A stretch of DNA of 64,000 bases, taken from assembly GCA_965223575.1 (NCBI GenBank), contig CBDCWZ010000010.1:1-64000 (forward strand), written 5' to 3'. Origin of the DNA: Kofleriaceae bacterium. GTDB taxonomy: Bacteria > Myxococcota_A > Polyangia > Haliangiales > Haliangiaceae. Below are positions 1 through 46,276 of this stretch, in pieces. Position 1 is the first letter of the stretch, and the number at the start of each line of letters is the position of its first letter. The notes beneath the pieces are model-generated. The model was not told where the DNA came from. It searched no databases and was given only the letters and a program-made list of their open reading frames with translations. The translations under genes and the position numbers were made by a program.

Positions 1-35
1 AGTAGGCCTACTTCATGCATCGCGTACAGCGTCTT

Positions 36-73
36 ACGGGATTCGAACCCACGACCTCCAGCTTGGGAAGCAG
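36..73 (-). repeat. partial 3' fragment of tRNA-Gly (anticodon-stem 3' side, variable loop, T-arm); 34-nt direct repeat of tRNA-Gly at 11490-11564; att-like island boundary
   Basis: gggattcgaacccacgacctccagcttgggaagc is identical at 40-73 and 11502-11535. No matching 5' acceptor half lies upstream on the minus strand. Confidence 0.6.
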
Positions 74-930: not shown

Positions 931-1284
931 TTAGATCCAGAGGATGGCGCAGGCCAGGAGAAGGAAACCGAGGTAACTTGTTGCCGTTTTTTCATAGCGT
1001 GTTGCGATCCGTCGCCAGCGCTTGATGGTGTGAAAGAAGCATTCCACAAGATAACGCTGCTTGTACATCTCCTTGTCATGCCGGCGTTTCCTCTTCCTTG
1101 ATTTGCCTGATGGAATTACCGGTTTCAGGCCGCGCTCTTTGAGTTCACTAATGATTCGGTCCGAATCGTACGCTCCATCTGCGAGAACAGCTTCACCGTG
1201 AACATAGTCGATCAGTTCCTCGGCCACGGTGGAATCGTGCTGCTGTCCTGGGGTAACAAGGATATGGATAGGTCGTGCTTTCAT
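931..1284 (-). CDS. IS5-family transposase OrfB (DDE catalytic part), expressed by -1 frameshift from OrfA
   Basis: ADGAYDSDRI...YKQRYLVECFFHTIKRWRRIATRYEK, DDE_Tnp_1 C-terminal signature. Confidence 0.8.
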   Translation of the reverse strand: MKARPIHILVTPGQQHDSTVAEELIDYVHGEAVLADGAYDSDRIISELKERGLKPVIPSGKSRKRKRRHDKEMYKQRYLVECFFHTIKRWRRIATRYEKTATSYLGFLLLACAILWI

Positions 1285-1331
1285 GTCGACCGCAACATGG
1301 ATCTTCGTGGAGAAACCGCCCCTTGAGCGAC

Positions 1332-1673
1332 CTATTTCGTTTTTTTTGGACCGCCCTTTCCACCCGAAGCATCCTGATGAGTGCGAACAACGGAACCATC
1401 TAGGATCGCACCGATCTCATCATCGTTCAGGCACAAGGCGCGAAATATGTCACGCCAACGGTCCTTGTTCGCCCAGCGCCAGAATCGATTGTACACAGTC
1501 TTCCACGGACCAAATCGCTCAGGAAGATCTCTCCACGGTGCACCCGTTTTTCCAATCCAGTGCACTGCGTTGATAAAACTTCGGTCTCCCCTTTTCGACG
1601 TTTGACCGTGTGGGGGCGGAAGGAGTCCCTCTATCTTGTTCCACTGTTCATCACTGAGTTCGTGGCGCCTCAT
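1332..1673 (-). CDS. IS5-family transposase OrfA (DUF4096-type N-terminal DNA-binding part)
   Basis: MRRHELSDEQWNKIEGLLPP...GAPWRDLPERFGPWKTVYNRFWRW, typical IS427-group OrfA. Confidence 0.8.
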   Translation of the reverse strand: MRRHELSDEQWNKIEGLLPPPHGQTSKRGDRSFINAVHWIGKTGAPWRDLPERFGPWKTVYNRFWRWANKDRWRDIFRALCLNDDEIGAILDGSVVRTHQDASGGKGGPKKTK

Positions 1674-1777
1674 ATAGTGATGTTGATCAATGATCAGTTC
1701 CCGGCGCCAGTTTTTGAACCAACGGCCGGCTAACCGATCGAAATGATCCAGTTTCTAATAGGGACATCCCCTAGTAC

Positions 1778-2257: not shown

Positions 2258-2732
2258 TCGACGGGTCGCCGCCTGTGAAGCGAACGCTGGCGCTGACAAC
2301 GGGGGCGCGGACTGGGACGAGGACGGGAACAACACTGACCACACGTACTACGACCCCAATGTACTTTGAGTTCGTGCAGCGTGGCGGCGACGCGCATTGG
2401 GTCTGACTATTTGCCGCGCACCAACAGTATTTGCTGTCGTCAAGAACTATTCTTTGCTATAATCGTTTTCACGAACGAGACGAACAATGACTCGCATGTT
2501 TGACATAGCCGCGACACAACCAGCGCCGAGAAAACATCTCGAGCGGCAGGGTACGTGCGCGCGCTTTAGCGATTCCGGGTTATCAGCCAGGCCAGTAGAA
2601 AGTTCGCGTATTTATCTCGCCGGCAACCTGATCTGGAATCCAGAAAGTGGGGCGGCTATGTCATGAAGCTAGTCAAATAGCACCGAGACACAGCCGTCCC
2701 AGGAAAACCTCGGACGGCTTTTTCGTGTTTCG

Positions 2733-2874
2733 GGGGGCACTCCACGGGTTGGTTGCCGCGGCTGTAAACCGCTTGCACGAGGGTTAACTAGGGTCCTTCG
2801 GACCCGTTGCCAGGGCCGAAAAATTCCATTGCATGGAATTTGTTCACCAACCTGGTCGAGTCCTTCTGCCCCCA
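2733..2874 (+). tRNA. tRNA-like, anticodon GTA (Tyr) with class-I (short) variable loop, interrupted in T-loop by 71-nt B-family element (2786-2856)
   Basis: acceptor gggggca/tgccccc; anticodon loop ctgtaaa; spliced T-arm gaggg-ttcgagt-ccttc is perfect; D-arm atypical. Confidence 0.45.
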
Positions 2875-2984
2875 CGACGGGAGACGTGCGCCCAGAAAAT
2901 GGCGCACACGAAAAACAATGACAGCGAAGCGAAAGGAAAAACGATGACGATGACAAAACGAAAACGGATGTGCGGACAACTTCT

Positions 2985-3126
2985 GCCTCCGTGACGCAAC
3001 GGTAGCGTAACCGACTTTTAATCGGAAAGTTGGGGGTTAACTAGGATGCTTCGCATCCGTTGACGCCACGGTATAAATCCAGCGAACTGGATTTATACCG
3101 TAAGGCGGACGATTCCCTCCGGGGCA
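2985..3126 (+). tRNA. tRNA-Lys(TTT) interrupted in T-loop by 71-nt A-family element (3039-3109)
   Basis: acceptor gcctccg, D-arm acgc-aacggta-gcgt, anticodon loop cttttaa; GGTT|[insert]|CGATTCC restores ggggg-ttcgatt-ccctc; 6/7 acceptor pairs. Confidence 0.55.
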
Positions 3127-3226
3127 CGACCGCGTTGCTGAAGATTTTGCAGAGCGTAGTGGACGCAGTCCACGGAGCTGCAAAAGTTCAGGCGCGTTAA
3201 CGGTCCTGTAGGGACCCAGTTAATCA
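3126..3226 (+). repeat. B-family structured spacer (forward orientation, variant hairpin), directly follows tRNA-Lys 3' end and precedes tRNA-Gln
   Basis: CGCGTTGCTGAAG…hairpins…GGTCCTGTAGGGACCCAGTTAATC; other forward copies at 3300-3371, ~3925-4030, 5343-5410, 5690-5788 begin right after tRNA discriminator bases and end in CCTAGTTAAC(C). Confidence 0.6.
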
Positions 3227-3227
3227 T

Positions 3228-3298
3228 TCGGAGATCGTCTAACGGTAGGACGACTGGCTCTGGACCAGTAAATCGGGGTTCGAATCCCTGTCTCCGAC
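3228..3298 (+). tRNA. tRNA-Gln(CTG)
   Basis: acceptor tcggaga/tctccga; anticodon loop ctctgga; T-arm cgggg-ttcgaat-ccctg; no encoded CCA. Confidence 0.7.
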
Positions 3299-3504
3299 CG
3301 CGTTGCTGAACAAATTCAACGAAGTGGAATTTTTCAGCCGCGATAACGGGTCCGAAGGACCCTAGTTAACCAGAACGAAACTGCGGTGTTCGCGACACGA
3401 GTGCCTTGAGTGGCCAGGGTGAACGACATCATCGGTGGATTCGCGATCTTTGACAACTGAATAGCGACGACGACAACGCGGGGCGTTTCCCGACGCCCCA
3501 TTTC

Positions 3505-3576
3505 CCACTTTGGCGTAGGTGGTCCGCGCGCCGGTCTGAAGAGCCGGAGGACCTGGTTCGATTCCAGGAGGGTGGG
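3505..3576 (+). tRNA. tRNA-like, possibly Phe(GAA); weak D-arm
   Basis: T-arm cctgg-ttcgatt-ccagg perfect; acceptor ccacttt/agggtgg with 2 GU; anticodon loop ctgaaga. Confidence 0.35.
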
Positions 3577-3749
3577 ACTTTTGCGGGTTCGTGGTGAAAC
3601 AGGATCATACCGGGTTCTTACCCCGTGAGTGAACTGCGCGCGGCCGAAGGCCGTGCTCGTTACCGCGGTTGAAAAATTCCAGTTTGTACTGGAATTTGTT
3701 CAACAACGCGGTGAGCGTGCAAATCGTTCCGGACCCACTACTCGCGTTT

Positions 3750-3893
3750 GCCCCTGGAAGCATCTGGGCGAGGCTAGCCGGCTGTCTACCGGCCGAGGAG
3801 GGTTAACTAGGATGCTCCGCATCCGTTGACGCCACTGTACAAATCCAGCGAACTGGATTTGTACAGTAAGGCGGACGATTCCCTTCAGGGGCG
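3750..3893 (+). tRNA. tRNA-Asp(GTC)-like interrupted in T-loop by 71-nt A-family element (3805-3875)
   Basis: acceptor gcccctg/caggggc perfect; anticodon stem gccgg/ccggc, loop ctgtcta (position 37 = T, unusual); spliced T-arm gaggg-ttcgatt-ccctt. Confidence 0.5.
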
Positions 3894-4042
3894 CTTTGGA
3901 AGCGCAAGCCAACTGGCGATGGCACCCGATTCGACCGGGTTGCTAAACTTTTGCGAAGCAGAGCGGATGTTCGTCCGCGGAGCTGCAACAAGTTTAGACG
4001 CGGTGACGGGTCCGAAGGACCCTAGTCAACTCGGGGCAGGTT

Positions 4043-4117
4043 AACTGCGCGCGCCTTCGGCGTGCTCGTTAACGCCGCTGTACAACTCCAGTTGCTGGAT
4101 TTGTACAGCAAGGCGGA
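4043..4117 (+). repeat. A-family variant element followed by an orphan tRNA 3' half (T-arm + acceptor 3')
   Basis: GGTT|AACTGCGCGCGCCTTCGGCGTGC…AAGGCGGA|CAACTCC restores gcagg-ttcaact-cctgt + cgcttcc; no 5' half upstream (occupied by a B-family copy). Confidence 0.45.
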
Positions 4118-4227
4118 CAACTCCTGTCGCTTCCGCCGATGGAAGGTAATCAGGCTGCGGAGCCTGGCCCGGCTGCTACCCGGTGCGCGCCAACAGCGTC
4201 TGGCTCGACTCCAGTGCCTTCCGCAAT

Positions 4228-4302
4228 GGCCCGGTCGTCTAATGGTCAGGACACGAGGCTTTCAATCTCGGAATCGGAGTTCGATTCTCCGTCGGGTCAC
4301 CA
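4228..4302 (+). tRNA. tRNA-Glu(TTC), CCA encoded
   Basis: close match to canonical bacterial tRNA-Glu (TCGTCTA..GGTCAGGACAC…CTTTCAA…); acceptor ggcccgg/tcgggtc; T-arm cggag-ttcgatt-ctccg. Confidence 0.8.
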
Positions 4303-4303
4303 C

Positions 4304-4375
4304 GGGCTGATAGTGATAGTGGGAACACGCTGCTTTCGCACGGCAGAAAGCCGGGTTCGAATCCCGGTCGGTCCA
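4304..4375 (+). tRNA. tRNA-Ala(CGC)-like
   Basis: acceptor gggctga/tcggtcc (GU pairs); anticodon loop ttcgcac; T-arm ccggg-ttcgaat-cccgg; begins 1 nt after preceding CCA. Confidence 0.5.
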
Positions 4376-4391
4376 CTTTAGCTCCTTCAAT

Positions 4392-4467
4392 GGGCACGCA
4401 TGTACCAAGGGGGCGAGCTGGCCTTGCAAGCCGGCTGTGGTCGGTTCGATTCCGACCGTGTCCACCA
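4392..4467 (+). tRNA. tRNA-Ala(TGC), CCA encoded
   Basis: acceptor gggcacg/cgtgtcc; anticodon stem ctggc/gccgg, loop cttgcaa; T-arm gtcgg-ttcgatt-ccgac; D-arm atypical. Confidence 0.55.
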
Positions 4468-4528
4468 TCCAATACCAGGTGTAAGTCAGCGGCAGACGGC
4501 ATCGTTTGGGACGATGCAGACGGAGGTT

Positions 4529-4599
4529 AACTAGGATGCTCCGCATCCGTTGACGCCACTGTACAAATCCAGCGAACTGGATTTGTACAGTAAGGCGGA
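4529..4599 (+). repeat. 71-nt A-family element inserted in T-loop of a tRNA-Pro(TGG)-like pseudo-tRNA (about 4470-4623)
   Basis: flanks GTT|…|CGATTCC restore ggagg-ttcgatt-cctcc followed by agggggc-a-CCA; anticodon loop tttggga; 5' acceptor does not pair, so pseudo-tRNA. Confidence 0.5.
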
Positions 4600-4634
4600 C
4601 GATTCCTCCAGGGGGCACCACACGCATCGATCTT

Positions 4635-4708
4635 CCGCCGGTAGTTCAACGGGAGAACTGTCGCCTGATAAGCGGCCAATGGTGGTTCGATTCCACCCTG
4701 GCGGACCA
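4635..4708 (+). tRNA. tRNA-Ile(GAT), CCA encoded
   Basis: acceptor ccgccgg/ctggcgg; D-arm gttc-aacggga-gaac; anticodon loop ctgataa; T-arm ggtgg-ttcgatt-ccacc. Confidence 0.8.
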
Positions 4709-4709
4709 T

Positions 4710-4784
4710 GGTGATCGTAGCTCAAAGGTAGAGCACTCGGCTGTGACCCGAGCGGTGGGAGTTCGATTCTCCTCGATCACCCCA
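4710..4784 (+). tRNA. tRNA-His(GTG) with encoded G-1, CCA encoded
   Basis: G-1 + gtgatcg/cgatcac, discriminator C; D-arm gctc-aaaggta-gagc; anticodon loop ctgtgac. Confidence 0.8.
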
Positions 4785-4796
4785 ACTTCCTTTTCA

Positions 4797-4870
4797 GCGG
4801 GCTTGGCGTAACAGCAGCGTATCAGGCTTCCAACCTGAGGGTACGGGTGCAATTCCCGTAGCCCGCACCA
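4797..4870 (+). tRNA. tRNA-Gly(TCC), CCA encoded
   Basis: acceptor gcgggct/agcccgc; anticodon stem tcagg/cctga, loop cttccaa; T-loop tgcaatt. Confidence 0.7.
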
Positions 4871-4872
4871 AC

Positions 4873-4943
4873 GCCTTCGTAGCACAGGGGCAGTGCACTG
4901 GTTTCGTACTCCAGGGACGTGGGTTCGATTCCCGCCGAAGGCT
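4873..4943 (+). tRNA. tRNA-Thr(CGT)
   Basis: acceptor gccttcg/cgaaggc; D-arm gcac-aggggca-gtgc; anticodon loop ttcgtac; T-arm gtggg-ttcgatt-cccgc. Confidence 0.7.
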
Positions 4944-4947
4944 CCGC

Positions 4948-5018
4948 TTCGGTGTCGTCCAACGGCAGGACAGCGGTCTTTGAAGCCGACGACCGGGGTT
5001 CGAATCCCTGCACCGGAA
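4948..5018 (+). tRNA. tRNA-Gln(TTG)
   Basis: acceptor ttcggtg/caccgga; D-arm like the Gln(CTG) copy; anticodon loop ctttgaa; T-arm cgggg-ttcgaat-ccctg. Confidence 0.6.
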
Positions 5019-5022
5019 CTGC

Positions 5023-5096
5023 GCCTCTCGTAGCCATCTGGGAAGGCACCTGCCTTGTAAGCAGGCTAGGCGGTTCGATTCCGACGAGGGGCTCCA
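5023..5096 (+). tRNA. tRNA-Thr(TGT), CCA encoded
   Basis: acceptor gcctctc/gaggggc; D-arm agcc-atctggga-aggc; anticodon stem cctgc/gcagg, loop cttgtaa. Confidence 0.7.
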
Positions 5097-5101
5097 TCTA
5101 T

Positions 5102-5173
5102 TCCTCCGTGGCTTAACGGTAGAGCACCCGGCTGTTAACCGGGGATGTGCAGGTTCGACTCCTGCCGGGGAGC
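5102..5173 (+). tRNA. tRNA-Asn(GTT)
   Basis: anticodon stem cccgg/ccggg, loop ctgttaa; T-arm gcagg-ttcgact-cctgc; acceptor tcctccg/cggggag with one mismatch. Confidence 0.6.
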
Positions 5174-5176
5174 TAT

Positions 5177-5329
5177 GTCGCTATCGTCCAGTTGGCGAGG
5201 ACGCCGGTCTCTCAAGCCGGAAACGGCGGGTTAACTAGGATGCTTCGCATCCGTTGACGCCGCTGAACAAATCCAGCGAACTGGATTTGTTCAGCAAGGC
5301 GGGCAAGTCCCCCTCCCCTAGCGACGCCA
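5177..5329 (+). tRNA. tRNA-Glu(CTC)-like interrupted by 71-nt A-family element (5233-5303); 3' T-arm degenerate; CCA encoded
   Basis: acceptor gtcgcta … tagcgac-g-cca; anticodon stem ccggt/gccgg, loop ctctcaa; T-stem ggcgg then GTT|insert|CAAGTCC plus a C-rich tail. Confidence 0.4.
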
Positions 5330-5543
5330 TGCGATCGTCGACCGCGTTGCTGAACAAATTCAACGAAGTGGAATTTTTCAGCCGCGGTAACGAGCACGCC
5401 GAAGGCGCGCGCAGTTAACAAGAGCTATTGAGGCCAAGGGGTTGACTAGGGTCCTTCGGACCCGTCACCGCGGCTGTAATCCTCCAGTAAACTGGATGAT
5501 TACAGCAACGCGGTCGATTCCCACCGTCGGCTCCAATCACTAT

Positions 5544-5615
5544 GCCTCCACCCAAGGATGGGACGCGGCGCTACGAACGCTGTCGATGAAGGTTCGAGTC
5601 CTTCTGGAGGTGCCA
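5544..5615 (+). tRNA. tRNA-Arg(ACG), CCA encoded; short D-arm
   Basis: acceptor gcctcca/tggaggt; anticodon stem cggcg/cgctg, loop ctacgaa; T-arm gaagg-ttcgagt-ccttc. Confidence 0.65.
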
Positions 5616-5617
5616 AT

Positions 5618-5687
5618 ACCACCGCACGTGGACTCGTGGCCTGGGGTTCCGAACCTTGGTGAAGCAGTTCGATTCTGCTCGGTGGAC
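5618..5687 (+). tRNA. tRNA-Arg(CCG)-like
   Basis: T-arm agcag-ttcgatt-ctgct; acceptor (a)ccaccg/cggtgga; anticodon loop ttccgaa with a GU-rich stem. Confidence 0.4.
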
Positions 5688-5793
5688 CGGGTTGCTGTAG
5701 TTATGCAAAGCGGAGCGGACGGAAGGTCCGCGAAGTTGCAGAACTACAGGCGCGATAACGGGTCGAGCGTAGCGAAACCCTAGTTAACTTCAT

Positions 5794-5860
5794 GGGCGAC
5801 GATCTGGGATCAGCTTGGGCTCCAAATCCGAGCAGCGGGGTTCAATTCCTCGGTCGCCTG
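5794..5860 (+). tRNA. degenerate tRNA-like (67 nt), anticodon unclear
   Basis: acceptor gggcgac/gtcgcct and T-arm cgggg-ttcaatt-cctcg, but no canonical anticodon arm. Confidence 0.25.
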
Positions 5861-5870
5861 CAACTCTTGC

Positions 5871-5943
5871 AGTCGCGTAGCCCAACGGAAGAGGCGGCAG
5901 GCTTAGAACCTGTGTGTTGGGGGTTCGAATCCTCCCGCGACTA
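5871..5943 (+). tRNA. tRNA-like, class-I structure with anticodon TAG (Leu codon CUA) - noncanonical
   Basis: acceptor agtcgcg/cgcgact; anticodon stem gcagg/cctgt, loop cttagaa; T-arm ggggg-ttcgaat-cctcc; 5-nt variable loop. Confidence 0.45.
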
Positions 5944-5946
5944 CTG

Positions 5947-6091
5947 CGGTACGTAGCCCAATCGGCAGAGGCATCCAGTTTAAGCCCGGACCAGTGAGGG
6001 TTAACTAGGATGCTTCGCATCCGTTGACGCCACTGTACAAATCCAGCGAACTGGATTTGTACAGTAAGGCGGACGACTCCCTCCGTACCGA
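5947..6091 (+). tRNA. tRNA-like (apparent anticodon TAA, class-I) interrupted in T-loop by 71-nt A-family element (6003-6073)
   Basis: acceptor cggtacg/cgtaccg perfect; spliced T-arm gaggg-ttcgact-ccctc perfect; anticodon stem has one mismatch. Confidence 0.45.
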
Positions 6092-6098
6092 CCTTCGA

Positions 6099-6243
6099 GC
6101 CAACGTAGCCCAACTGGCAGAGGCACCGGATTCAAATCGCGGACAGTATCGGTTAACTAGGATGCTCTGCATCCGTTAACGCCGCCGAACAAATCCAGCG
6201 AACTGGATTTGTTCAGCAAGGCGGACGACTCCGATCGTTGGCA
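6099..6243 (+). tRNA. tRNA-like (anticodon region ttcaaat, possibly CAA) interrupted in T-loop by 71-nt A-family element (6155-6225)
   Basis: acceptor gccaacg/cgttggc perfect; spliced T-arm atcgg-ttcgact-ccgat perfect; anticodon stem poorly paired. Confidence 0.4.
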
Positions 6244-6249
6244 CAAAAC

Positions 6250-6408
6250 GCGGACGTGGTGGAACGGGATACACGCAACGTTGAGAGCGTTGTGAGCCAC
6301 GTGCTCAATGCCGGTTAACTCGGGGCCTTTGGACCCGTTCTCGGGGCTGAAAAATTCCACGATGTGGAATTTGTTCACCAACCCGGTCGAATCCGGCCGT
6401 CCGCACCA
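6250..6408 (+). tRNA. tRNA-Leu(GAG), class II, interrupted in T-loop by 71-nt B-family element (6317-6387); CCA encoded
   Basis: acceptor gcggacg/cgtccgc perfect; anticodon stem caacg/cgttg, loop ttgagag; long variable arm gagc-cacgt-gctc; spliced T-arm gccgg-ttcgaat-ccggc perfect. Confidence 0.65.
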
Positions 6409-6441
6409 TCCAGAAACATCAACCCTCAACGAAAGGCAGCC

Positions 6442-6972
6442 ATGACGGCTCAAACACTGTTGTTGTCCGCGGGCTATGAGCCGATCAAGGTCGTCTCTTG
6501 GCAACGCGCGATAACCTTACTCACGCTCGGCAAGATCGAAGTTCTGGAAGAGTATGATCGCGAAGTTCGATCCCCGACCATTGCGTTTAAGATGCCTGCG
6601 GTCGTTCGACTTTTGCAGGTACTCAAGCGCAACAAGAAGGCAGTCAAGTTCTCGCGCATCAACATCTATGCGCGGGATAAGTACCGGTGCCAATACTGCT
6701 GTCGAAAGCTACCCATCGCCGAGTTGACCTACGACCACGTCGTTCCGCGCGCGAAGGGTGGCAAGACGATTTGGCAGAACATCGTGACCGCATGCGAAAC
6801 GTGCAACAGCCGCAAGGGGAACCGGACGCCGGAGCAAGCGCACATGGCGTTGCTCAACCGGCCAACACGGCCGACTTGGGTCCCGGTCATGACGCTTCGG
6901 GTAAACCGCAACACGGCGCCCGATGCCTGGAGAGACTATCTCTACTGGACCGGTGAACTGCAAAGCGGCTGA
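6442..6972 (+). CDS. HNH endonuclease (small McrA-like HNH nuclease) embedded in the tRNA array
   Basis: CQYCCRKLP…LTYDHVVPRAKGG…CETCNSRKGN (HNH His-metal finger); RBS GAAAGG before the ATG at 6442. Confidence 0.8.
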   Translation: MTAQTLLLSAGYEPIKVVSWQRAITLLTLGKIEVLEEYDREVRSPTIAFKMPAVVRLLQVLKRNKKAVKFSRINIYARDKYRCQYCCRKLPIAELTYDHVVPRAKGGKTIWQNIVTACETCNSRKGNRTPEQAHMALLNRPTRPTWVPVMTLRVNRNTAPDAWRDYLYWTGELQSG

Positions 6973-7029
6973 CCGCACACCGAATGCCACGGGCCACAGA
7001 TCGGATCCGCGAGCCCGCCGGCATTCACT

Positions 7030-7117
7030 GGAGAGACAAACCGATTGGCGACGGTGCTCGGCTTGAACCCGAGTGAGCGTAACTGCCTTAGGGGTTCGAC
7101 TCCCCTTCTCTCCGCCA
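7030..7117 (+). tRNA. tRNA-Ser(TGA), class II, CCA encoded
   Basis: acceptor ggagaga/tctctcc; anticodon stem ctcgg/ccgag, loop cttgaac; long variable arm; T-arm agggg-ttcgact-cccct. Confidence 0.8.
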
Positions 7118-7118
7118 T

Positions 7119-7203
7119 GGAAGGCATCCGAATGGTGAGGACCCCGGTTGGAAGCCGGGCGGGCGACAACGTTGCCTTGAGGGTTCGAGTCCCTCGCCTT
7201 CCG
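7119..7203 (+). tRNA. tRNA-Ser(GGA), class II
   Basis: acceptor ggaaggc/gccttcc; anticodon stem cccgg/ccggg, loop ttggaag; long variable arm; T-arm gaggg-ttcgagt-ccctc. Confidence 0.75.
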
Positions 7204-7207
7204 CTGC

Positions 7208-7276
7208 GCCTCGCGGGACGGATCCCAGCTGGGTCTTCTAAACCCGGCGCTCCAGGTTCAATTCCTGGGCGAGGTA
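7208..7276 (+). tRNA. tRNA-Arg(TCT)
   Basis: acceptor gcctcgc/gcgaggt; anticodon stem tgggt/acccg, loop cttctaa; T-arm ccagg-ttcaatt-cctgg; short D-arm. Confidence 0.55.
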
Positions 7277-7277
7277 C

Positions 7278-7345
7278 GGCTCCTCTGATGGACCAGTCCC
7301 GGCTCTTCTAAAGCTGGAGAGAGCGTTCGATTCGCTCAGGAGCCA
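7278..7345 (+). tRNA. tRNA-Arg(TCT), second copy
   Basis: acceptor ggctcct/aggagcc; anticodon stem cggct/agctg, loop cttctaa; T-arm gagcg-ttcgatt-cgctc. Confidence 0.55.
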
Positions 7346-7548
7346 CTTCGCGCCCCGAACACGCGAAGACTCCTACAGCTTCGCGCGTATTTCGCCACCT
7401 CAACCGTACTGGTCATTGATCCGGGTGGATGTCCGCCCATCGCACGCCGAACTTCGCAAGGTACTTGCGAACACGATCTGAATCGTTGGCGCTCGAGACT
7501 TGGGCGAAATCGATACGTTTCGAAATACGGCGAAATAAGGGGTCAGAC

Positions 7549-7659: not shown

Positions 7660-8850
7660 ATGCTCTGCGTGTTTTGCAATTCTCTGTTGCCTTCGAAGAA
7701 GCCCGAACATGTAGTGAGCGCCTTCCTCGGTGGAAGACGAAGCTCAAGGAATCTGCTCTGTGATCTCCACAATGAAACGTTCGGCGGCTCATTTGAACGC
7801 CACGCGGCCAAAGGACTAGCCTCTCTGGCGAACATGCTTGGTGTCAGGAGCGGTCGCCGGCGAGCACCGCCACAAATTCAGGGCATTAAGGGACCAGACA
7901 AGTCTGAGACTTACACGCTCTTGCCAGGAGCAAAGATCATTCAACCCAAAGCGAAGGTCGAGATCGACGAGTCGGAGAACGGGCAGGTTCGAATACGCAT
8001 CAGAGCTGATGCAACCAAAGGCCATCAGATCCATAAGATTCTGGAGAGTTTCGCAGCCAAGTACGGAACCACGCTAGACGAAACGATTTTAGCCCAAGCC
8101 AACGTTACACAGATTCAACTCCCATCGCCCATTGAACTTGATATCACCCTAGGGCCGGACCTGCTGCGTTCACTCTCAAAAATCTCGTTACTACTTCTCG
8201 CTACCAAGACCGGTACAGTCGCGGTTCGAGGCTCCGCCTTTGAGGATGTTCGCAGGTTCATCGAGATCGGCGGACCAAGCAGTGAGTTCATTCGGATGAA
8301 TTCGGCAGCAAAGCTACCAACCATAGTAGGTCTGCACGAACCAGCAGTAGCCGTGCATCGTTTTTTGGTGTACGCAACTCGCGAATTCGGCTGTTTTGCG
8401 ACAATCGAACTGTATGGATGTTTTCTATTCACAGGCCTTCTTTCCAAGGAGTGGAACTCTGAAAATATTAGCGTTGGCCACTCGGTCAACCCCATCACCG
8501 AGCAACACTTCGTAGCTTATAATTTCAGTTCATCACCAATTTCGATTGACCAATTTGCTACTATCAAAGGCGATCAGGTAGCCACCAATGGCCGGCTGGA
8601 CAATCTGTTGAGCTTCGCAATAAGGCGTATGCAACAGCAAGCTCTTGAAGAAATGGTCGCACGATGTATTAATGAAAGCATTGGTAAGAGCGAGGATGTC
8701 ATTACTGAGGAAATGATCGCCAAATTGACCATGTCCTTTGCCGAGCAGTTCGTTGCTACGCAGAAGGGATACGTTCTAGAGCGACAACTCACCATTGACG
8801 ACGTTATTCCTCGAACTCCGACAGGAGAGCCCGACGGCCCTGATGAGTGA
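7660..8850 (+). CDS. HNH_5-type nuclease domain protein (N-terminal HNH, uncharacterised C-terminal ~300 aa); defence-like standalone gene
   Basis: CVFCNSLLP…PEHVVSAFLGG…LCDLHNETFGG fits the C.YC…EH.IP.SLGG HNH_5 pattern. Confidence 0.6.
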   Translation: MLCVFCNSLLPSKKPEHVVSAFLGGRRSSRNLLCDLHNETFGGSFERHAAKGLASLANMLGVRSGRRRAPPQIQGIKGPDKSETYTLLPGAKIIQPKAKVEIDESENGQVRIRIRADATKGHQIHKILESFAAKYGTTLDETILAQANVTQIQLPSPIELDITLGPDLLRSLSKISLLLLATKTGTVAVRGSAFEDVRRFIEIGGPSSEFIRMNSAAKLPTIVGLHEPAVAVHRFLVYATREFGCFATIELYGCFLFTGLLSKEWNSENISVGHSVNPITEQHFVAYNFSSSPISIDQFATIKGDQVATNGRLDNLLSFAIRRMQQQALEEMVARCINESIGKSEDVITEEMIAKLTMSFAEQFVATQKGYVLERQLTIDDVIPRTPTGEPDGPDE

Positions 8851-9251: not shown

Positions 9252-9746
9252 CTACGCAGCGAAATCTTCTTCAACTACCCAGCCTTTTTTAGCTGAACGG
9301 AACCCAAGCCTGAGTGGTATTGCTTCTTCTTCGATTTCTTGCAGTCGATCGATAGGATATTGCTGAATTGGGTCAAAGGTGGTTGCTGCGAGTCGAAGAA
9401 GTCTATCTGCAGTCGAGTTCATTTTTTGCGATCCCGACTCCCATCGCGAAACCGTCTCACGCTCGACGCCAAAGTGTCGGGCGAAGTCAGTCCCAGACCA
9501 ACCGAGTGATTTTCTGAGGAATCGGATTTCCTCCGGTGTGAGACGAGCTGATTTGGTACTAATGGCATAGACGATGACCCGATGAAGTTCCTCGACTTTG
9601 GGAATCCCAACAAACGATTCACCGCACGCACCACAACGCTTTACATTCACACCAATCAAGGTGACGCGAACTCCTTGGGCGTCGTACAGGTGATTTTCTC
9701 TCGCTGACTTGAGTTGCCCACCACAATGTATGCACTTCATGTCCAT
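9252..9746 (-). CDS. MqsA/YgiT-like antitoxin (N-terminal CxxC…CxxC zinc finger + C-terminal XRE-type HTH)
   Basis: MDMKCIHCGG…CGACGESF then …RFLRKSLGWSGTDFARHFGVERETVSRWESG. Confidence 0.7.
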   Translation of the reverse strand: MDMKCIHCGGQLKSARENHLYDAQGVRVTLIGVNVKRCGACGESFVGIPKVEELHRVIVYAISTKSARLTPEEIRFLRKSLGWSGTDFARHFGVERETVSRWESGSQKMNSTADRLLRLAATTFDPIQQYPIDRLQEIEEEAIPLRLGFRSAKKGWVVEEDFAA

Positions 9747-9755
9747 CTCCTTGAT

Positions 9756-10076
9756 TCAGCGGCCCATACGCCATGCTGTAACGGCCACAAGCTCCAGCTC
9801 ACTCCAGAAAGCAACCACAACAGTGATGCGCTGCGTTCGGACCTGATATCTCCAGGAACCATTTTCCCATTCGCCCTCGCCGACAACGCCGCCACGCATG
9901 ACGTTGCTACAATCAATTTCCGACAAGTTGTCGTTCGCCATTTCCTGCCGTGCATGCTTTGAGTAATAGACGGTTCCATTGGTGATGATTTCTCGGATGA
10001 GCCGTTTTGCGTCCGAACTACTGAGTGGCTCATCCATATGTGATCTTATATCACATATTGACTTATAGTCAAACAC
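9756..10076 (-). CDS. DUF4258-family (RelE/ParE-fold) toxin partner of the MqsA-like antitoxin
   Basis: …YYSKHARQEMANDNLSEIDC…; 106 aa; immediately upstream in the same operon, 9-nt intergenic. Confidence 0.55.
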   Translation of the reverse strand: MFDYKSICDIRSHMDEPLSSSDAKRLIREIITNGTVYYSKHARQEMANDNLSEIDCSNVMRGGVVGEGEWENGSWRYQVRTQRITVVVAFWSELELVAVTAWRMGR

Positions 10077-10724: not shown

Positions 10725-11273
10725 TTGGGAACAAAGGGGGGCATTTCTATGGTTCGTAAAGTTCTCATTGGACTGGCAGGATTAGCTGGTGTACTTGCCA
10801 CAGTTGCCTGGTTTACAACTTCGTCTCCCAATCAAAACGAGCTGCGAATGATCAATATTAAGAACGCCAAAAATTATTTGGGAGTGTTAGTCGGCGGGCA
10901 GCCCAGCGATGAGGAGCTGAGGCATGCCGCAAAGTCCGGCTATCAGACGATTATTAACTTGCGTACGGCTTCTGAACCGGGGAGCGCTGAAGAAAAAGTA
11001 CTCGCGGAAAAGCTCGGCCTTGTTTACGTTTCGATCCCGACAGCAGGGGAGGCCGGATTGACTCGGGAAAATGCAACAGCTTTGCACGAGGCACTCAAGG
11101 CGGCATCAGGGCCAGTCATGCTTCATTGCGGTAGTGGAAACCGCGTCGGTGGTCTGATTGCTTTGCGCGCACACTATTTGTTAGGAATGCCCGCCAACAC
11201 TGCGCTAGAGGAAGGCAAGAAAGCGGGTCTCACAGGACTCGAACCCGCTGTGACACGCATCCTCGGCCTGTAA
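10725..11273 (+). CDS. membrane-anchored phosphatase-like protein (TIGR01244/DUF442 'beta-lactamase hydrolase-like' dual-specificity phosphatase fold)
   Basis: HCGSGNRVGG (CX5R P-loop); N-terminal hydrophobic segment; start may be the ATG at 10749. Confidence 0.6.
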   Translation: MGTKGGISMVRKVLIGLAGLAGVLATVAWFTTSSPNQNELRMINIKNAKNYLGVLVGGQPSDEELRHAAKSGYQTIINLRTASEPGSAEEKVLAEKLGLVYVSIPTAGEAGLTRENATALHEALKAASGPVMLHCGSGNRVGGLIALRAHYLLGMPANTALEEGKKAGLTGLEPAVTRILGL

Positions 11274-11297
11274 CGGAACGACCAACTCAGGGGGGAT

Positions 11298-11360
11298 GGG
11301 GACGCGTTTCGGAAGTTCGGAACTTCGCAATTAGATTTCCGAACTTTCGAAACACGTCCC
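11298..11360. repeat. palindromic repeat copy 3
   Basis: same family; directly downstream of the phosphatase gene stop. Confidence 0.8.
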
Positions 11361-11489
11361 CATTGTTCCATTGTTTTCCCATTGTTTTCTTCGGGCTCGA
11401 TTAGGGGCGAACATCCTCACCGGAGCTGAAATGGAAAACGCCCGACCAGGAATGGAAACCTAACCGGCCGTCTTCAAACTGCTTTCGCG

Positions 11490-11567
<78 letters not shown>

Positions 11568-11733
11568 TGCGTTGTAAGTTACTGCAATACTTAAAGTTGT
11601 CAAGAGGCAATCCGGCATCGTTTCATTCATAAGTGCCTAGTCCCCGGTTTGGTCTCCGGTTTTTGGCAACAAACATCGGCACAATTTGGCGAATCCGATG
11701 CTACTGCTTTTCATCAAGCCCAACATTTGAATA

Positions 11734-11916
11734 GTGCTCTTGCATCTCGACGGTGACATGACCGGTCAACGCCCGCCGAACGACGGGGTCAATCTTCGCC
11801 CTTCGAATCATATCCGAAAACACGCACACGCTACGCTAAAGGTTCGCCAACAGCTACCAGTCAGGTGGTCGGATTCGCCCCAGGGCTTCGTCGGTTGCGA
11901 GTTCAAGTTCGGCTAA
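11734..11916 (-). pseudogene. C-terminal fragment of a tyrosine recombinase/integrase gene
   Basis: DNA 11750-11830 matches the 3' end of the integrase fragment at 20900-21000 (gtgaccggtcaacgcccgccgaacga…). Confidence 0.5.
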
Positions 11917-11929
11917 CTCGGTTACGGCA

Positions 11930-12330
11930 CCACGACTGGTCGTCTGCCCGTTTGCTCAAGTGGACGATGGGCTCCTAGGTCCGCCCACCAGATTTCACCG
12001 CACTTCATCTAGCATCTTCTTCATCTAGCATCTTCTTCATCTAGCATCTTCTTCAGCCAGCATCTCGCACCACTCATCTATTCCTTGATCGGCAAGGGCA
12101 AGATCTTCTTCCTCGCCGGTATTAGCGAGCCTATTTAGGTCCCACCGCGCGGGGTCGGGATGACGGAGCACAATCACAGAGACATGCTCGCCTTGGCGAA
12201 GATCTAGACGTTGGCTGGGTTTGAGCACACCGTCACTGTATTCAGCTTCGATCGGCTTCACATTCAATAGATTAGCACGTTCGGCAACTATGGGCTATCG
12301 CCGTGATTTTAGCCCTAGAAAAAGCAACAA
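11930..12330. repeat. ~400-bp direct repeat, copy 1 (copy 2 at ~32450-32860); carries a DUF104-like antitoxin gene and the 5' end of mazF
   Basis: long near-identical stretches, e.g. tttgctcaagtggacgatggg…ccaccagatttc…cttcatctagcatcttcttca…. Confidence 0.75.
12037..12267 (-). CDS. DUF104-like (COG2880) putative antitoxin
   Basis: MNVKPIEAEYSDGVLKPSQRLDLRQGEHVSVIVL; second, frameshifted copy at ~32657-32780. Confidence 0.5.
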   Translation of the reverse strand: MNVKPIEAEYSDGVLKPSQRLDLRQGEHVSVIVLRHPDPARWDLNRLANTGEEEDLALADQGIDEWCEMLAEEDAR

Positions 12331-12676
12331 AAGCGAGAATTTCAAACAGATCGAGCGGTGTCTTCCCAAGAGGTTCCTTCGTCGGGATCCCGTTCGTACT
12401 CTGCTAGCCGTTCGTCCAATACTTCGCGGTGCGACCGGCTCGTAGAGCTTATCGATCTCGGTGGGACTCATCGCATGTCTCCGCGCAAGTTCGTTGCTCT
12501 CCTGCGCAAAGTTGTGACCTTTGAGCGTTGTCGCCGATCCTCGACGTGCTGGTTTAAACCCCACGAGTCACCGCATATGCACTATCACTTGGCCAGCCGC
12601 TCAACAGCTGCCCCCGAGGCCGCGGTTACTCCGAGTGCAGAAGGCCAGACACTCGGAAAGAATTGTCCTGCGCAGC

Positions 12677-15600
12677 TCATTGCCGTTCGTCCAGTTCGGC
12701 AAGCAGCTTGGCCAGCACTTTGCTGCGCTCTGGATCGCGCAGTAGTGTTTCACACGCTGCAAGTAGCTCTGCGCGGTTGCCCAAGTAGGCATCGGTTGTC
12801 TTCTCCAGGTACCGCGCTACGCGGAACAAGTCTGAGATCGGGACGGCACTTTTCCGTTTGCGGGAAGCCCGAACTGGCAACCAGCGTGGTCTCTGTGCGG
12901 GCTTGCCGGTCGGGGCAGGCGCCTTCCACGGACCAGGAGGCCTTGGGCCGACACGGAGGGGGCGACCCTCGCGGGTTGACGCCGCGTCCACAGGTAGCCA
13001 GCGCGAACCGTCGTTTGTTTCAACCAGCGCCATTGCCCACAGGTGATCCGGCTCGTCTACGAAACCGCGGTCAAACGTCCAACCCGTAGCGACAACAGCG
13101 GGAATGCCGGCGCGCCGGAGCAGTTCGCAAGCCAGTGCGTTGAGCTCATAACAGACGCCACGCCCCAGGGTGTCGGCGTCACTGCTTGCGTGCAGCGCCG
13201 CGACGTGTACATTGGAACGGCCGCGGCTTCGCTGCCGGAGCCAGGCTGCAACAGAAGGATCTTCGAGATAGGTGGGATCGTAAACGTAGCGCTCTCGAAT
13301 GAAGGAACGCACCGTTTCGGCCGCTGTGAGTACATCGGTCTCGTTGCGCGCGCTCGCCGCAATATCGTGCACTTCGTCCGGTAATTCCGCGTCCGCCACC
13401 GTGGGTTCCAGAAGTGCTCTGGGCGCACGACGCGGTCGGTCGCCGTTTTCCATGTTGGGCGGTTCAAAGAGCTCAACCTCGACAGTCACGACGGCGTCCT
13501 CTTTGTTAAGCCAAACAGAAAGCCCAGCGGCGTCAACCAGATGATCGAGACCATTCCCCATACCGTCGGCCTGTAGGAGAGACACTTGACCAAATAGGGG
13601 CACGGGTATCACCGCCTCTCCACCAGGCAACTTACCCCGCAAACGGACTCGACCCACAGAATCGGTGCCACGAAACCACGATCCATCGCCCACGAAACGC
13701 TGCCAGCTCTGACTCCAGGAGCTAAAGCCCGCGTAGAGGACTTGTGGCGCGTACTGGTATGGAAGTGGCAGCGACGCGGGCGAGTGGGCGAGACCGAAAG
13801 TTCCCGCCCGCTGGCGGTCAGCAAGCCAGCCTGTTCCGTCGGCTAGTTGTTCCTCGAGATTGCTCCGCGATCGAAACCAGCGGCGATCGCGCTTGGGGTC
13901 ACGACGCGCTGGGGGCGGACGTCTTTGCGACCTCGACCCAGACGGACCGCCAGCTGGCGGCGGAGCAAAAGAGCTTGGCTCGGACTTCGTGGAGTCCCGG
14001 CGGTCTGGCCGCGGCTTGGTCTCCTCATCTTGTTTGTCGTTTCCACGCAGCCATTGCCGCATGCGTGTCAAGAACCCTGGGCCCTCTTCCCCTTTGGGTG
14101 GGCTGGGCTCGCTCGGCTTCGGCTTGGCGGACTCTTCTGGCTCTGCGCCATGCTGGAACGTCTCCTGGATTGTGGGGCCGGTTGCGTTCTCCACAACGCT
14201 TGGGGGGCGACTGGTTTCTCTCGCTCCAATGCTGCTTACTACGCCGTAATGAGCTAGGTAGCTGGCCCAGGCAGAATGTTGCGCACCGTCAGCGAGTACA
14301 ATTTCGAACTCGCCTACGCCTTCATCCCCTGCGAATCTAATCCGCGCCGCTGCTTCTGGTAGCAGGCATACGTACAATTCCTCGTGCCTGTGGCATGCTA
14401 CAGCAAGTTGAGGAGGCTTGTGGCCACCACTGTCTACCAGAAGATCGAGGCACCGCGGCAGACGTTCGGCCCAAAGTTTCCCTTCGGCCTTGGCGACGCC
14501 ATCGGCCCAGTCCACGGTTGCACACAATTCTGAAATAAAGGAGACCACGTCGCGCTTTCCGGGCCGGCGTGCGATGCGCAAGGCCGACGCGAGGCGCCCG
14601 AGCTGTGCTCCCCGTGACCAATCGCCTCGTTGGTCTCCGAACCGGTAGCGGGCACCTTCGATGACAACCTCCCCGGGTCGCCGGAGCACGCCCAGGTCGT
14701 CAACGAGCATTGGAACATGACTGAGCGCATCGCGTAACTTGGTGCCGTCGATGCTGCCGGATGTGAGACCGGCATTGAGCCATGCCAGTACCTCGCTGCT
14801 CGCAGGCGGCTGAGCGGCGATGGTGGCCAGCACGTCCTCGAGGTCCGCGCTGGCACTATCTCGGGTGCCGATCCATTCATGTGCGTTGGGCACCCGATGA
14901 ACGACTTCAGGATGCACGAGACGATCTTCGCGTTCCCCGATGAGATCAGTGAGGTTATCCGAGGGCCAGTACAGTGCCTCGGGACGATGGGGTGTGCCAT
15001 TCTGATCGACGAGCCACGTGCGGTCACGAAGGGCCAGGGCATTTCGCAACTCCGGAATGCGGTGACCCAACCCCGCTACGTAACACGCAAGAGCGACTTT
15101 GGCGTCCGGGCCCGGTTTCAGCGCATTGCCGTCGAGAAATGAGCGTAAAGCATCTTCGCTGAGTTCTGCATCGGCTCCCGCGGCGACAAGCAGCGCTACC
15201 GTTTCGGCGGCCTCGTAGCGGCGAGACACCCGCTGGGGCATCGGGTCGGCGAAGCGCGCAATCAGATCACCATCGTGCGGCGTAGACGCCAATAGGGTTC
15301 TGGGCCGCTTAAACTCGCCGCTGGCACTTTCGACTCGGAGACGTTTTCGCAGCTGCAAGCGGCGCACACGATCACCGAACCCCTCTTGGTCGGGCCGCAG
15401 CGCCCGCGCGAGATGAGCAATGATCGACGCGAGCCTGTCGCCATCACGAGCGTCAATCGCCGCATCGGCGGCATCTAGCAGCTTGTCGCTCAGGGGGCGT
15501 AGCTGTTTGGTTGCGGGTCGATAGGCTGCGCGTAGCCATGTGACAAGCCGACTGGGCAGCTCGTCGGCGGGATTCCAATCGATGCCCAGGTCGGGCAGCT

Positions 15601-20513: not shown

Positions 20514-20870
20514 TCATCGTTGTAGATTGCCGGCTACATAGAGTTGCGAGGAATCGTCAGTCGACCTCCGGTACCGCCGTTTGCGAAAGGCATAGAGGCC
20601 CATTTCTCGCATGATTCGAGCGACGCGGTGACGACCAGCAATGCAGCCTCGCTCTCGCAGCGCGTGAGTCATACGCGGGCTCCCATAGCTGTGGCGGGTT
20701 TCTTCGAAGATTTCCTCGATGTGCTCGCGCAGGTCTGCGTTTTGCTCGTCTCGGTTACACGGGCCTCGCGTGAGCCATGCGTAGTACCCGCTCCGTGAAA
20801 CTTCAAGAGCGTCGCATAACGCACGGATGCCGTATTTTGCCTTCTGCGCGTGAACGAATGCATATCTCAC
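20514..20870 (-). pseudogene. IS3-family transposase OrfB N-terminal fragment
   Basis: YGSPRMTHALRERG…RHRVARIMREMGL (HTH_21 region of IS3 InsF-like); integrase core absent. Confidence 0.6.
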
Positions 20871-21412
20871 TCGTTTTCGCTCGCACAGAAGGCCGCGAAC
20901 TTTTTTAGAATTTCACGCTCTGTCTCAAGTTTTGCCACCCGCTTGTGTGTCCCCTGTTCTACGGTGACGTGACCGGTCAACGCCCGCCGAACGACTGGAT
21001 CAATTTTCGCTCGGCGAATTATATCGGAAAACGTGTAGCTTAATCCATTGGGCGTAAATCGCTTGGCAGGATGCTTGGCGTCCTCAGGGTGCCCACGCTT
21101 GATGGGAACATCCAACCCGTCTGAATACCAGCGGATTGTTGTTTTGATCATTGCACGTCGATGTTCACGGAGAATATCAGCAACTTCCGACTCCACTGGA
21201 TACTCTTTGGGGGCTCTTTTTTTGTTTGTAACTTTTCCAATTCTACCACGCACTTGTTTGCGTCTAATGTGCAACACACTATGCTCATCATCCCAGTCCT
21301 CCCAGCGCAGAGCACTCGCGTGACAAAATCTCAACCCGGTATAGGCAAGCACCACCACCAAGGCAAAATGTTGCGGAAACCGATCTCGCATCGCCACAAG
21401 AAACTGCATCAA
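20867..21412 (-). pseudogene. tyrosine recombinase (phage integrase) C-terminal catalytic fragment
   Basis: LAYTGLRFCHASALRWEDW…HIRRKQVRG…LTGHV…; 181 aa, lacks N-terminal SAM-like domain. Confidence 0.65.
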
Positions 21413-28024: not shown

Positions 28025-28204
28025 CGCCTGATGCCCAGGCGCTCGCTCGTTTTCCGATCCGATATCGGAAATACGCTCGGTCGCCCGGACTTTGGCCAGT
28101 GATCATGCAGCTCTACATACTTTTCCGTGCGGAGGTTCATTTGGATCTTGCCTTTGTGTACTTGGTACATTAAGCTATGTGTATAGAGTACACAATAAGA
28201 AACC

Positions 28205-28894: not shown

Positions 28895-28903
28895 GGAATC
28901 AAC

Positions 28904-29401: not shown

Positions 29402-29404
29402 ACA

Positions 29405-46130: not shown

Positions 46131-46276
46131 ACGGTCATTCTGCCCTGTTCATAACTTTATTTGCCGGCGATTGACAGAGCAAACCCGGGCGAGTAATTAG
46201 GGGGTGTCCCGACTATGAATGTACCACCAGATAATCCCCTGAAACAGCAGGGGGCGTTGCTCGTTGGTCACCGCCT

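Follow-up and report, generated by a model that had tools for sequence, protein, structure and literature searches.

The window studied here, the first 64,000 nucleotides (nt) of contig CBDCWZ010000010.1 from a Kofleriaceae bacterium (assembly GCA_965223575.1), is a piece of bacterial chromosome of ~55% G+C that encodes GltB, HflX and ABC transporters and, near its beginning, contains a long tRNA array (2733..7346) into which a family of small, two-hairpin elements has been inserted. About 30 tRNA genes or remnants identified with ARAGORN and Rfam, all on the plus strand, are packed into 4.6 kb, and their order agrees with that of three related arrays, on the contigs here labeled L126, L127 and L002. 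An HNH endonuclease gene (6442..6972, plus strand; Pfam HNH_5 and HNH) is located inside the array and is a marker of this array type, and a gene for the RNA ligase RtcB (33543-34691, minus strand) is present ~26 kb away. Excerpts of the published account of "L-arrays" (PMC8421152, 2021) describe them as long, horizontally spread arrays of supernumerary, normally silent tRNA genes, with a conserved homing-type HNH gene, frequent rtcB neighbors and a patchy spread across phyla. The window locus is an array of this kind: it combines more than 20 clustered supernumerary tRNA genes, the HNH gene and a nearby rtcB with a patchy distribution, homologous arrays having been found in a Myxococcales metagenome-assembled genome (MAG), a Haliangium genome and a viral contig.

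Sixteen copies of a single non-coding element family, 71-100 nt in length, span positions 2786-6387, eleven in the sense of the tRNA genes and five reversed. When the 64 kb are searched with a covariance model trained on eight copies, all 16 score E <= 1e-6 and no independent copy appears outside the array, the other matches being opposite-strand echoes of the same hairpins. With 16/16 copies inside the array, the initial suspicion, raised in a first-pass annotation of the letters alone, that these repeats are non-random and tied to tRNA genes is borne out. Nine T-arms are split by exactly 71 nt between GGTT and CGA (or CAA), and deletion of the inserts in silico allows ARAGORN to recover tRNA-Tyr(GTA), Lys(TTT), Asp(GTC), Leu(TAA), Leu(CAA) and Leu(GAG). 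In the intact sequence ARAGORN reports 16 tRNA genes in the array and Rfam 13; over the whole window the ARAGORN count rises from 17 before element removal to ~30 after it (32 calls, including a few spurious overlaps). The elements explain why, in some tRNA arrays, annotation pipelines overlook at least a third of the genes. The 9-mer TTAACTAGG, with one mismatch allowed, occurs 14 times against 4.3 expected, 13 of the 14 within the array.

The two inserts from which the analysis started, F1 (2786..2856, plus strand; 52 bits with the covariance model) and F9 (6317..6387, plus strand; 47 bits), are each exactly 71 nt long and located between GGTT and CGA, as first described, and their excision yields tRNA-Tyr(GTA) and tRNA-Leu(GAG), respectively. 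The joined flanks of F1 are identical at 64/64 nt to the uninterrupted tRNA-Tyr of L127 across GGTT|CGA (the bar denotes the junction), and F9 is absent from L126, in which tRNA-Leu(GAG) is uninterrupted. Other plus-strand copies of 71 nt, belonging to what had been called type A, occupy the T-loops of tRNA-Lys(TTT) (F2, 3039..3109; 97 bits; empty site in L127), tRNA-Asp(GTC) (F3, 3805..3875), a tRNA-Glu(CTC)-like gene (F5, 5233..5303, at GGTT|CAAGTCC), tRNA-Leu(TAA) (F7, 6003..6073; 99 bits) and tRNA-Leu(CAA) (F8, 6155..6225), while one more copy of type A (F4, 4529..4599) is flanked by 5' sequence of tRNA-Pro(TGG) on one side and by 3' sequence of tRNA-Val(TAC) on the other, joining the two. 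A 71-nt copy of a GAC...GTC type (F6, 5444..5514, plus strand; 89 bits) is found in the T-loop of a tRNA 3' fragment. Two forward variants had been overlooked at first: Fv1 (3632..3712, plus strand; 81 nt, with a long first hairpin), at the border of variable loop and T-stem in tRNA-Lys(CTT), and Fv2 (4043..4117, plus strand; 75 nt), which splits the T-loop of what is left of a tRNA-Ser(CGA) gene. Neither is present in L126; since the empty site of Fv1 in that array reads GAGT|TGAGCG, the true register of this copy is 3631-3711.

Five minus-strand copies confirm the reported reverse complements, and the accompanying proposal that these begin directly after the discriminator base, in place of an encoded CCA, is only loosely right, their positions not being uniform. 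R1 (3129..3221; 93 nt, with a long second hairpin) is located one nt past the discriminator base of tRNA-Lys(TTT), where L127 displays the empty site GGGGCACG|AATCAT, and R5 (5686..5785; 100 nt) directly adjoins the 3' strand of the acceptor stem in a tRNA-Arg(CCG)-like gene. R2 (3297..3367; 71 nt; 66 bits) is inserted inside the 3' end of tRNA-Gln(CTG), at ...TCTCCG|AACCA, so that its excision restores A-CCA and a 74-nt tRNA-Gln ending in CCA; R4 (5341..5416; 76 nt) follows the CCA of the Glu(CTC)-like tRNA at a distance of 11 nt; and in the tRNA-Ser(CGA) remnant (3897-4135) that also harbors Fv2, R3 (3934..4027; 94 nt) splits the anticodon loop at TTCG|AAC. This doubly hit gene is intact in L126 and L127, both of which lack R3, and in the window its 16-nt variable arm is gone, which looks like decay.

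Architecture, folding and target of the elements

Taken as a whole, the family ranges from 69 to 100 nt, and two hairpins take up nearly the whole element. The first hairpin, HP1, starts from nucleotide 1 and consists of R-A-C, a bulge of 1-2 nt (usually TA), a stem of 6-11 bp, a triloop and a closing G-T-Y. The second, HP2, has a closing stem of 4-5 bp (CGCC/GGCG, CCAGG/CCTGG or CCGCG/CGCGG), an internal loop of AA or CAA and a long hairpin, with a further hairpin nested inside it in the 89-100-nt variants. The left end (RACTAGG...) and the right end (...AACGCGGT or ...AAGGCGGA) are not mutually inverted, each forming its own hairpin. Types A and B, initially regarded as separate families, differ in their stem sequences and share this one architecture; the hairpin types recur in several combinations across copies, a reassortment of modules within one family, of which A, B and the variants are merely sub-types. 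The 11-nt terminus that A and B were said to share resolves into 4 nt of target and 7 nt of element: the element terminus is RACTNGG, and the flanking GGTT and CGA are target sequence. In five copies, namely Fv1 and four from Myxococcales, the register is shifted by 1 nt at both ends (GGT|G-AAC...CCG|TCGA). Within a tRNA-like stretch of L002 (1630-1702, minus strand) there is also a half copy, scoring 19.5 bits and comprising the second hairpin only, which may be a decayed or truncated element.

The compensatory changes expected of genuine hairpins were sought in an alignment of 34 distinct copies. MAFFT combined with RNAalifold recovered only part of the structure, the bulges shifting the register, and a hand-set covariance model was used instead. 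In the resulting alignment 92.7% of the cells are paired and 21/28 pairs have changes on both sides; fitting to a model favors pairing, and both controls with slid partners and independent single-sequence folds agree with these values. The covariation score of 0.412 compares with 0.115 in shuffled alignments, none of 500 of which reaches it, and with <= 0.085 for slid partners. Nucleotide 1 is paired with the closing pyrimidine in every copy, as A-U in 27 and as G-C in 7. The stems are almost purely Watson-Crick: G-U accounts for 4 of ~846 pairs in the model-fitted alignment and for 21/1095 in the predicted minimum-energy folds (0.5-2%), against 219/2465 (8.9%) for tRNAs in these arrays, a difference with p about 1e-17 to 1e-24. 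The DNA-fold z-scores of the hairpins range from -2.8 to -8.6, and the reverse complement is more stable than the sense strand in 25/39 copies, clearly so in the Myxococcales sub-type. No Rfam family matches the elements at gathering thresholds or at E <= 1, and no hammerhead, twister, pistol, hatchet, hairpin or HDV ribozyme was detected at E <= 1 within 2600-7500. Because G-U pairs are nearly absent, the sense strand has no folding advantage and no RNA family is matched, these data point to hairpins that act at the level of DNA and not as a selected RNA structure.

The target was derived from 43 distinct sites in the window, L126, the Myxococcales MAG (L002 and L003), L128, the viral contig L132 and metagenome contigs. 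It reads (G)GTT|CG(A), with no duplication seen, and the conservation is G at -3 in 41/43 sites, T at -2 in 43/43, T at -1 in 38/43, C at +1 in 39/43, G at +2 in 34/43 and A at +3 in 33/43. This motif corresponds to G53-T54-T55|C56-R57-A58 of the tRNA T-loop, sense copies being inserted between T55 and C56. All of the ~29 independent T-loop insertions are in tRNA sense because the motif is asymmetric, and the antisense insertions, 11/11, are at CG|AAC-like sites outside T-loops. Since the motif reads CG|AAC on the other strand, reversed copies occur at tRNA 3' ends (tRNA-Gln, ...CCG|AACCA), in anticodon loops (tRNA-Ser(CGA), TTCG|AAC; also tRNA-Arg(TCG) of the viral contig), in D-loops and in spacers. 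The orientation bias was considered as evidence of a function at the RNA level and rejected, as the asymmetric target (G at -3) explains it. Outside the array the window offers 16 free GGTTCGA and 178 free GTTCG sites, yet all its copies are in the array.

Filled and empty sites in related arrays

Related arrays were retrieved through the many close homologues of the array-embedded HNH gene. L127 (HNH 86% identical) has its tRNA genes in the same order and is free of elements. When the flanks of the window inserts are joined, they agree exactly with the uninterrupted L127 genes, and the inserts are, therefore, precise insertions without target duplication. L126 (HNH 96% identical) is ~98-99% identical to the window over the aligned array positions, and the two arrays nevertheless differ by the presence or absence of at least 10 elements, L126 having 21 copies and the window 16. 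Four copies, Fv1, R3, Fv2 and F9, are found only in the window; at least 6 are found only in L126, including T-loop insertions in tRNA-Thr(CGT), Arg(CCG) and Ala(CGC), three genes that the window has in intact form. Each of these differences amounts to exactly one element, and the target bases are not duplicated.

The comparison with L126 also reveals how the elements reshape an array. A segment of 894 nt between two identical L126 copies (7041 and 7935) is missing from the window, where F4 has the left flank of the copy at 7041 and the right flank of the copy at 7935. This deletion arose in the window between two identical element copies; it left the chimeric tRNA-Pro(TGG)/Val(TAC) at 4470-4620, and L126 retains the deleted segment with tRNAs Pro(GGG), Gly(GCC, itself interrupted), Met, Ile(TAT) and Pro(CGG). 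The elements in this way show how tRNA arrays erode and rearrange. At another place, L126 10625-10823, a reversed and a forward copy are arranged back to back, the forward copy having the same left flank as the R4-type copy, and the equivalent position of the window is taken up by a tRNA-Ser(TGA) 3' part and a tRNA-Ser(GGA) 5' part; the arrangement suggests an element-mediated rearrangement.

Mobilization and alternative explanations

The explanation that we favor, with a probability of roughly 0.6, is that each insert is a copy of a site-specific, non-autonomous element that produces no target duplication, is comparable to miniature inverted-repeat transposable elements, known as MITEs, or palindrome-associated transposable elements (PATEs), and would move as folded single-stranded DNA, mobilized by an enzyme acting in trans. 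By analogy, the "peel and paste" transposition of IS200/IS605 would be the nearest known counterpart. Insertion takes place precisely after GTT in (G)GTT|CG(A), the universal tRNA T-loop sequence as written in DNA, and an interrupted tRNA gene would presumably be non-functional until the element excises. As the tRNA genes of the horizontally transferred L-array are supernumerary, their disruption is tolerated; being redundant, they can safely accommodate an element that would be lethal if it hit the same target in housekeeping tRNA genes. Near-identical copies also recombine with each other and produce deletions and chimeric tRNAs. The proposal of a dedicated system acting on the array, made in the first-pass annotation, is well supported in its recombination half, by the precise empty sites, the presence/absence differences and the target motif, and unsupported in its processing half, given the lack of a match to a known RNA family or ribozyme, the Watson-Crick stems, the absence of a sense-strand advantage and the reversed copies in anticodon and D-loops. 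The family provides a compact, sequence-specific DNA insertion system without target duplication and would be, to our knowledge, the first known small mobile element aimed at the universal tRNA T-loop sequence. Full-text literature searches returned no published description of a mobile element that targets the T-loop, and the excerpts of PMC8421152 mention insertions, duplications, deletions and pseudogenes and, within those excerpts, no T-loop-interrupting element.

Several observations weigh against this explanation. At E <= 1e-4, a Pfam scan of 934-51098 in the window detected neither an HUH/Y1 transposase nor a recombinase of the tyrosine or serine type, the only mobile-element proteins being IS4/5, IS66 and IS3-like fragments. 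The gene lists of the related contigs contain no Y1 transposase, only a large serine recombinase and the HNH gene, both of which also adjoin the element-free array L127. With HP1 starting at nucleotide 1, there is no room for a left guide in the style of IS608. Simple parasitism, moreover, predicts neutral drift, contrary to the conservation seen between the window and L126: resident element copies have 4 differences in ~910 nt (0.4%), lower than the 24-30/681 (3-4%) of the spacers, and the exons of interrupted tRNAs, at 9/609 (1.5%), are like the intact tRNAs, at 17/1278 (1.3%), the HNH gene having 30/531 (5.6%). A comparison with L127 aimed at faster decay of interrupted tRNAs gave 20/298 differences against 57/1129, values that are not clearly apart. 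Nearly all interrupted genes give a clean cloverleaf after removal of the element in silico, and Tyr, Lys, Asp and Pro are represented in the window's array solely by interrupted genes. The conservation of copies and exons could be explained by gene conversion among copies, by a mosaic history or by real constraint. In the HNH gene itself, 22 of the differences between the window and L126 fall within 200 nt (6457-6657) and 8 within the next 315 nt, those in the first half clustering at third codon positions, and this distribution hints at a recombinant, mosaic history of the locus.

The resemblance to the PATEs of IS200/IS605 is substantial: the elements have no terminal inverted repeats and no target duplication, carry a hairpin at each end, insert directly 3' of a short conserved flank (GTT), leave seamless empty sites and contain bulged hairpin bases that could mark strand identity. 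They differ in that no cognate TnpA was found in 934-51098 of the window or in the gene lists of related contigs, in that HP1 leaves no space for an IS608-type left guide, and in that the right-end "guide" pairing is plain Watson-Crick and absent in the Myxococcales sub-type; the closing stem at that end (CGCC/GGCG, CCAGG/CCTGG, CCGCG/CGCGG) covaries. They are also far smaller than known PATEs, and their target additionally includes the right-side CGA. Membership in the IS200/IS605 family is not established. Bacterial MITEs and palindromic repeats (Correia, RUP, Nezha, Rickettsia palindromic elements) are likewise small, non-coding, multi-copy and strongly folding, with mobilization in trans, and the polymorphism of classical MITEs between strains has its counterpart in the differences between the window and L126; the Rickettsia elements can also reside inside genes, in that case both coding and RNA genes. 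In contrast to classical MITEs, the elements lack terminal inverted repeats, filled and empty sites reveal no target-site duplication, the strict target coincides with a universal tRNA motif, and there is a confinement to tRNA arrays. The double-hairpin elements of chytrid and other fungal mitochondria, which measure tens of nt, consist of two hairpins, are mobile and occur in structural RNA genes and spacers, differ in being organellar, with unrelated sequences and no defined T-loop target.

The attC sites of integrons are comparable as substrates that fold as single-stranded DNA with extrahelical bases, and their AAC...GTT core resembles the foot of HP1 (GGTT AAC ... GTT GAC). They were rejected as a model: GGTTAAC/GTTGACG fits the RYYYAAC/GTTRRRY cores only partly, the junction follows the TT of the flank and is not the G|TT of the internal GTT, and neither an integrase nor a cassette structure was found. 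For reasons of junction geometry or of features that are missing, IS91 (insertion after GTTC), transposons duplicating TTAA or TA, att sites of large serine recombinases (with their shared central dinucleotide), IS110 bridge-RNA elements and hammerhead-like three-way junctions were likewise rejected.

Among the alternatives, the one that fares best accepts the same DNA mobility and regards the inserts as mobile T-loop introns, cut from the pre-tRNA at the three-way junction that the insert forms with the T-stem, the exons being rejoined by RtcB and the interrupted genes thereby staying functional; we consider it unlikely. It would account for the fact that the exons of interrupted tRNAs are as conserved as intact tRNAs, and resident copies even more so, with spacers and HNH gene less conserved, and for amino acids represented in the array by interrupted genes only. 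Cloverleaves are, furthermore, intact after excision in the Myxococcales and viral arrays (6/6, 2/2 and 3/3), and in the four Myxococcales copies and Fv1, which have G in place of T55 on the left, a T is supplied at the right end, resulting in a canonical T-loop. The window contains an rtcB gene, the L126 array is immediately followed by an RtcR-RtcB-RtcA operon, and the linkage of rtcB to L-arrays is stated in the excerpts of PMC8421152, which also link rtcB to arrays without elements, a point against the intron explanation. As with the introns of other tRNA genes (bacterial group I introns, and bulge-helix-bulge introns of Archaea and eukaryotes, including T-loop positions of a non-canonical kind in Archaea and red algae), the site is fixed and the exons are intact, and the archaeal introns are also thought to be mobile, with exons rejoined by RtcB. 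Differences are the bacterial host, the antisense copies, the DNA-like Watson-Crick stems and the absence of a group I catalytic core. An orientation-specific RNA mechanism leaves the reversed copies in anticodon and D-loops unexplained; the Watson-Crick stems are unlike the selected RNA structure present in the same arrays; the sense strand has no folding advantage; and the doubly hit tRNA-Ser(CGA) exhibits decay. There is no match to an Rfam ribozyme or intron family and no bulge-helix-bulge motif, as the insert has its 5' border at the base of an unbroken hairpin and its 3' border 0-2 nt past the last pair of HP2. A group I intron is rejected because inserts of 71-100 nt cannot contain its catalytic core of 200 nt or more, and because they are mostly in the T-loop, not the anticodon loop. 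We know of no bacterial tRNA-splicing endonuclease, which also counts against splicing, and no EndA-like domain was found among the scanned open reading frames (ORFs) of the window. That the inserts would constitute a new class of bacterial tRNA intron, a mobile two-hairpin cassette excised by an endonuclease with array-linked RtcB rejoining the halves, appears doubtful. If true, it would mean protein-dependent tRNA splicing in Bacteria and provide a physiological substrate for bacterial RtcB, and the conserved interrupted genes together with the neighboring RtcB make bacterial tRNA splicing a concretely testable question.

Homing driven by the HNH enzyme, which would cut the intact GGTT|CGA T-loop DNA, spare interrupted sites and let repair from an interrupted paralogue spread the insert, much as with an intron lacking its own endonuclease gene, seems improbable to us. 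The HNH gene is embedded in every array examined, and the excerpts of PMC8421152 describe it as an endonuclease of the homing type that L-arrays have conserved; the target, which is common to many tRNA genes, is short and in part palindromic (TTCGAA). Nevertheless, six of the eight arrays sampled through HNH have no elements and contain many intact GGTTCGA sites, and in the window itself 29 GGTTCGA sites are uncut. Insertions are also found at sites that share only ~5 nt with T-loops, in spacers, in an anticodon stem and on non-tRNA contigs, where there is no flanking homology from which repair could be templated. HNH homologues of 65-96% identity occur in comparable arrays with and without elements, and the array HNH, equally present in element-free arrays, is only a candidate partner of the elements. 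Finally, host-selected signals, with hairpins directing RNase cleavage or termination between tRNAs, are very improbable: the hairpins are stable and some copies are situated between tRNAs, but most are inside tRNA genes, their presence varies between near-identical arrays, both orientations occur with G-U pairs nearly absent, and the orthologous array L127 works without elements, which largely refutes this possibility.

Distribution and genomic neighborhood

The family has a patchy distribution. Two of the eight arrays sampled via the HNH gene contain elements (L126 and L128), the other six (L127, L129/130, L131, L133/134, L135 and L136) being free of them, and elements are also present in the Myxococcales MAG and in the viral contig. 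A scan of genomes returned 5 loci, 2 of them real and both from one Myxococcales MAG; among the matches listed in the metagenome scan, most are due to chance and at least 5 are real (L011, L032, L055, L109, L121). A viral scan with GGTTAACTAGG-N11-CCGTT gave no match, nor did a scan for the nested-hairpin motif, and a generic search for other structured inserts in split T-arms was noisy and recovered only this element family. The metagenome contigs L032, L109 and L121 carry the long sub-type ending ...ACAGCCATGTT, with no tRNA gene on the contig; the left flank GGTT of these three was imposed by the search pattern, and the copy in L121 is located in the loop of a GGGAGGG/CCCTCCC hairpin. The family is, therefore, not strictly confined to tRNA genes.

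The surroundings of the array comprise remains of other mobile elements and a number of further genes. Upstream there is a frameshifted transposase of the IS4/5 family (934-1754, minus strand; DUF4096 plus DDE_Tnp_1). A tRNA-like T-arm fragment, GGGTTCGAATCCC, at the very edge of the window (1-70, minus strand), precedes this transposase as well as the array and may mark the border of an integrated island. An IS3-like HTH_21 fragment (20517-20912, minus strand) and an IS66 TnpC gene with IS66 Orf2 (23378-25734, minus strand) are located further downstream. Just past the array, an ORF of 396 amino acids (7660-8850, plus strand) has a weak N-terminal match to HNH_5 (E = 1.4e-4). Between the array and tRNA-Gly(CCC) (11490-11564), an MqsA-like antitoxin gene adjoins one for a DUF4258 protein (9252-10076, minus strand), and the two are probably a toxin-antitoxin pair. 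A DTW-domain protein is encoded at 45507-46148 (minus strand); the DTW family includes tRNA acp3U transferases. The operon that follows the L126 array (11051-17538) encodes RtcR, a 721-amino-acid ORF without a Pfam match, RtcB and RtcA. Other arrays enclose further genes: Ro60/TROVE in the Haliangium array (L131 1202-2794) and extra EF-Tu genes in L129 (7579-8760) and L135 (133-1314). In the window, a gene cluster at 27000-30430 encodes a Macro/ADP-ribosylglycohydrolase, an NrtR-Nudix protein, a Macro protein and a Band_7 protein, and Band_7 genes also adjoin the arrays in L002, L133, L134 and L136.

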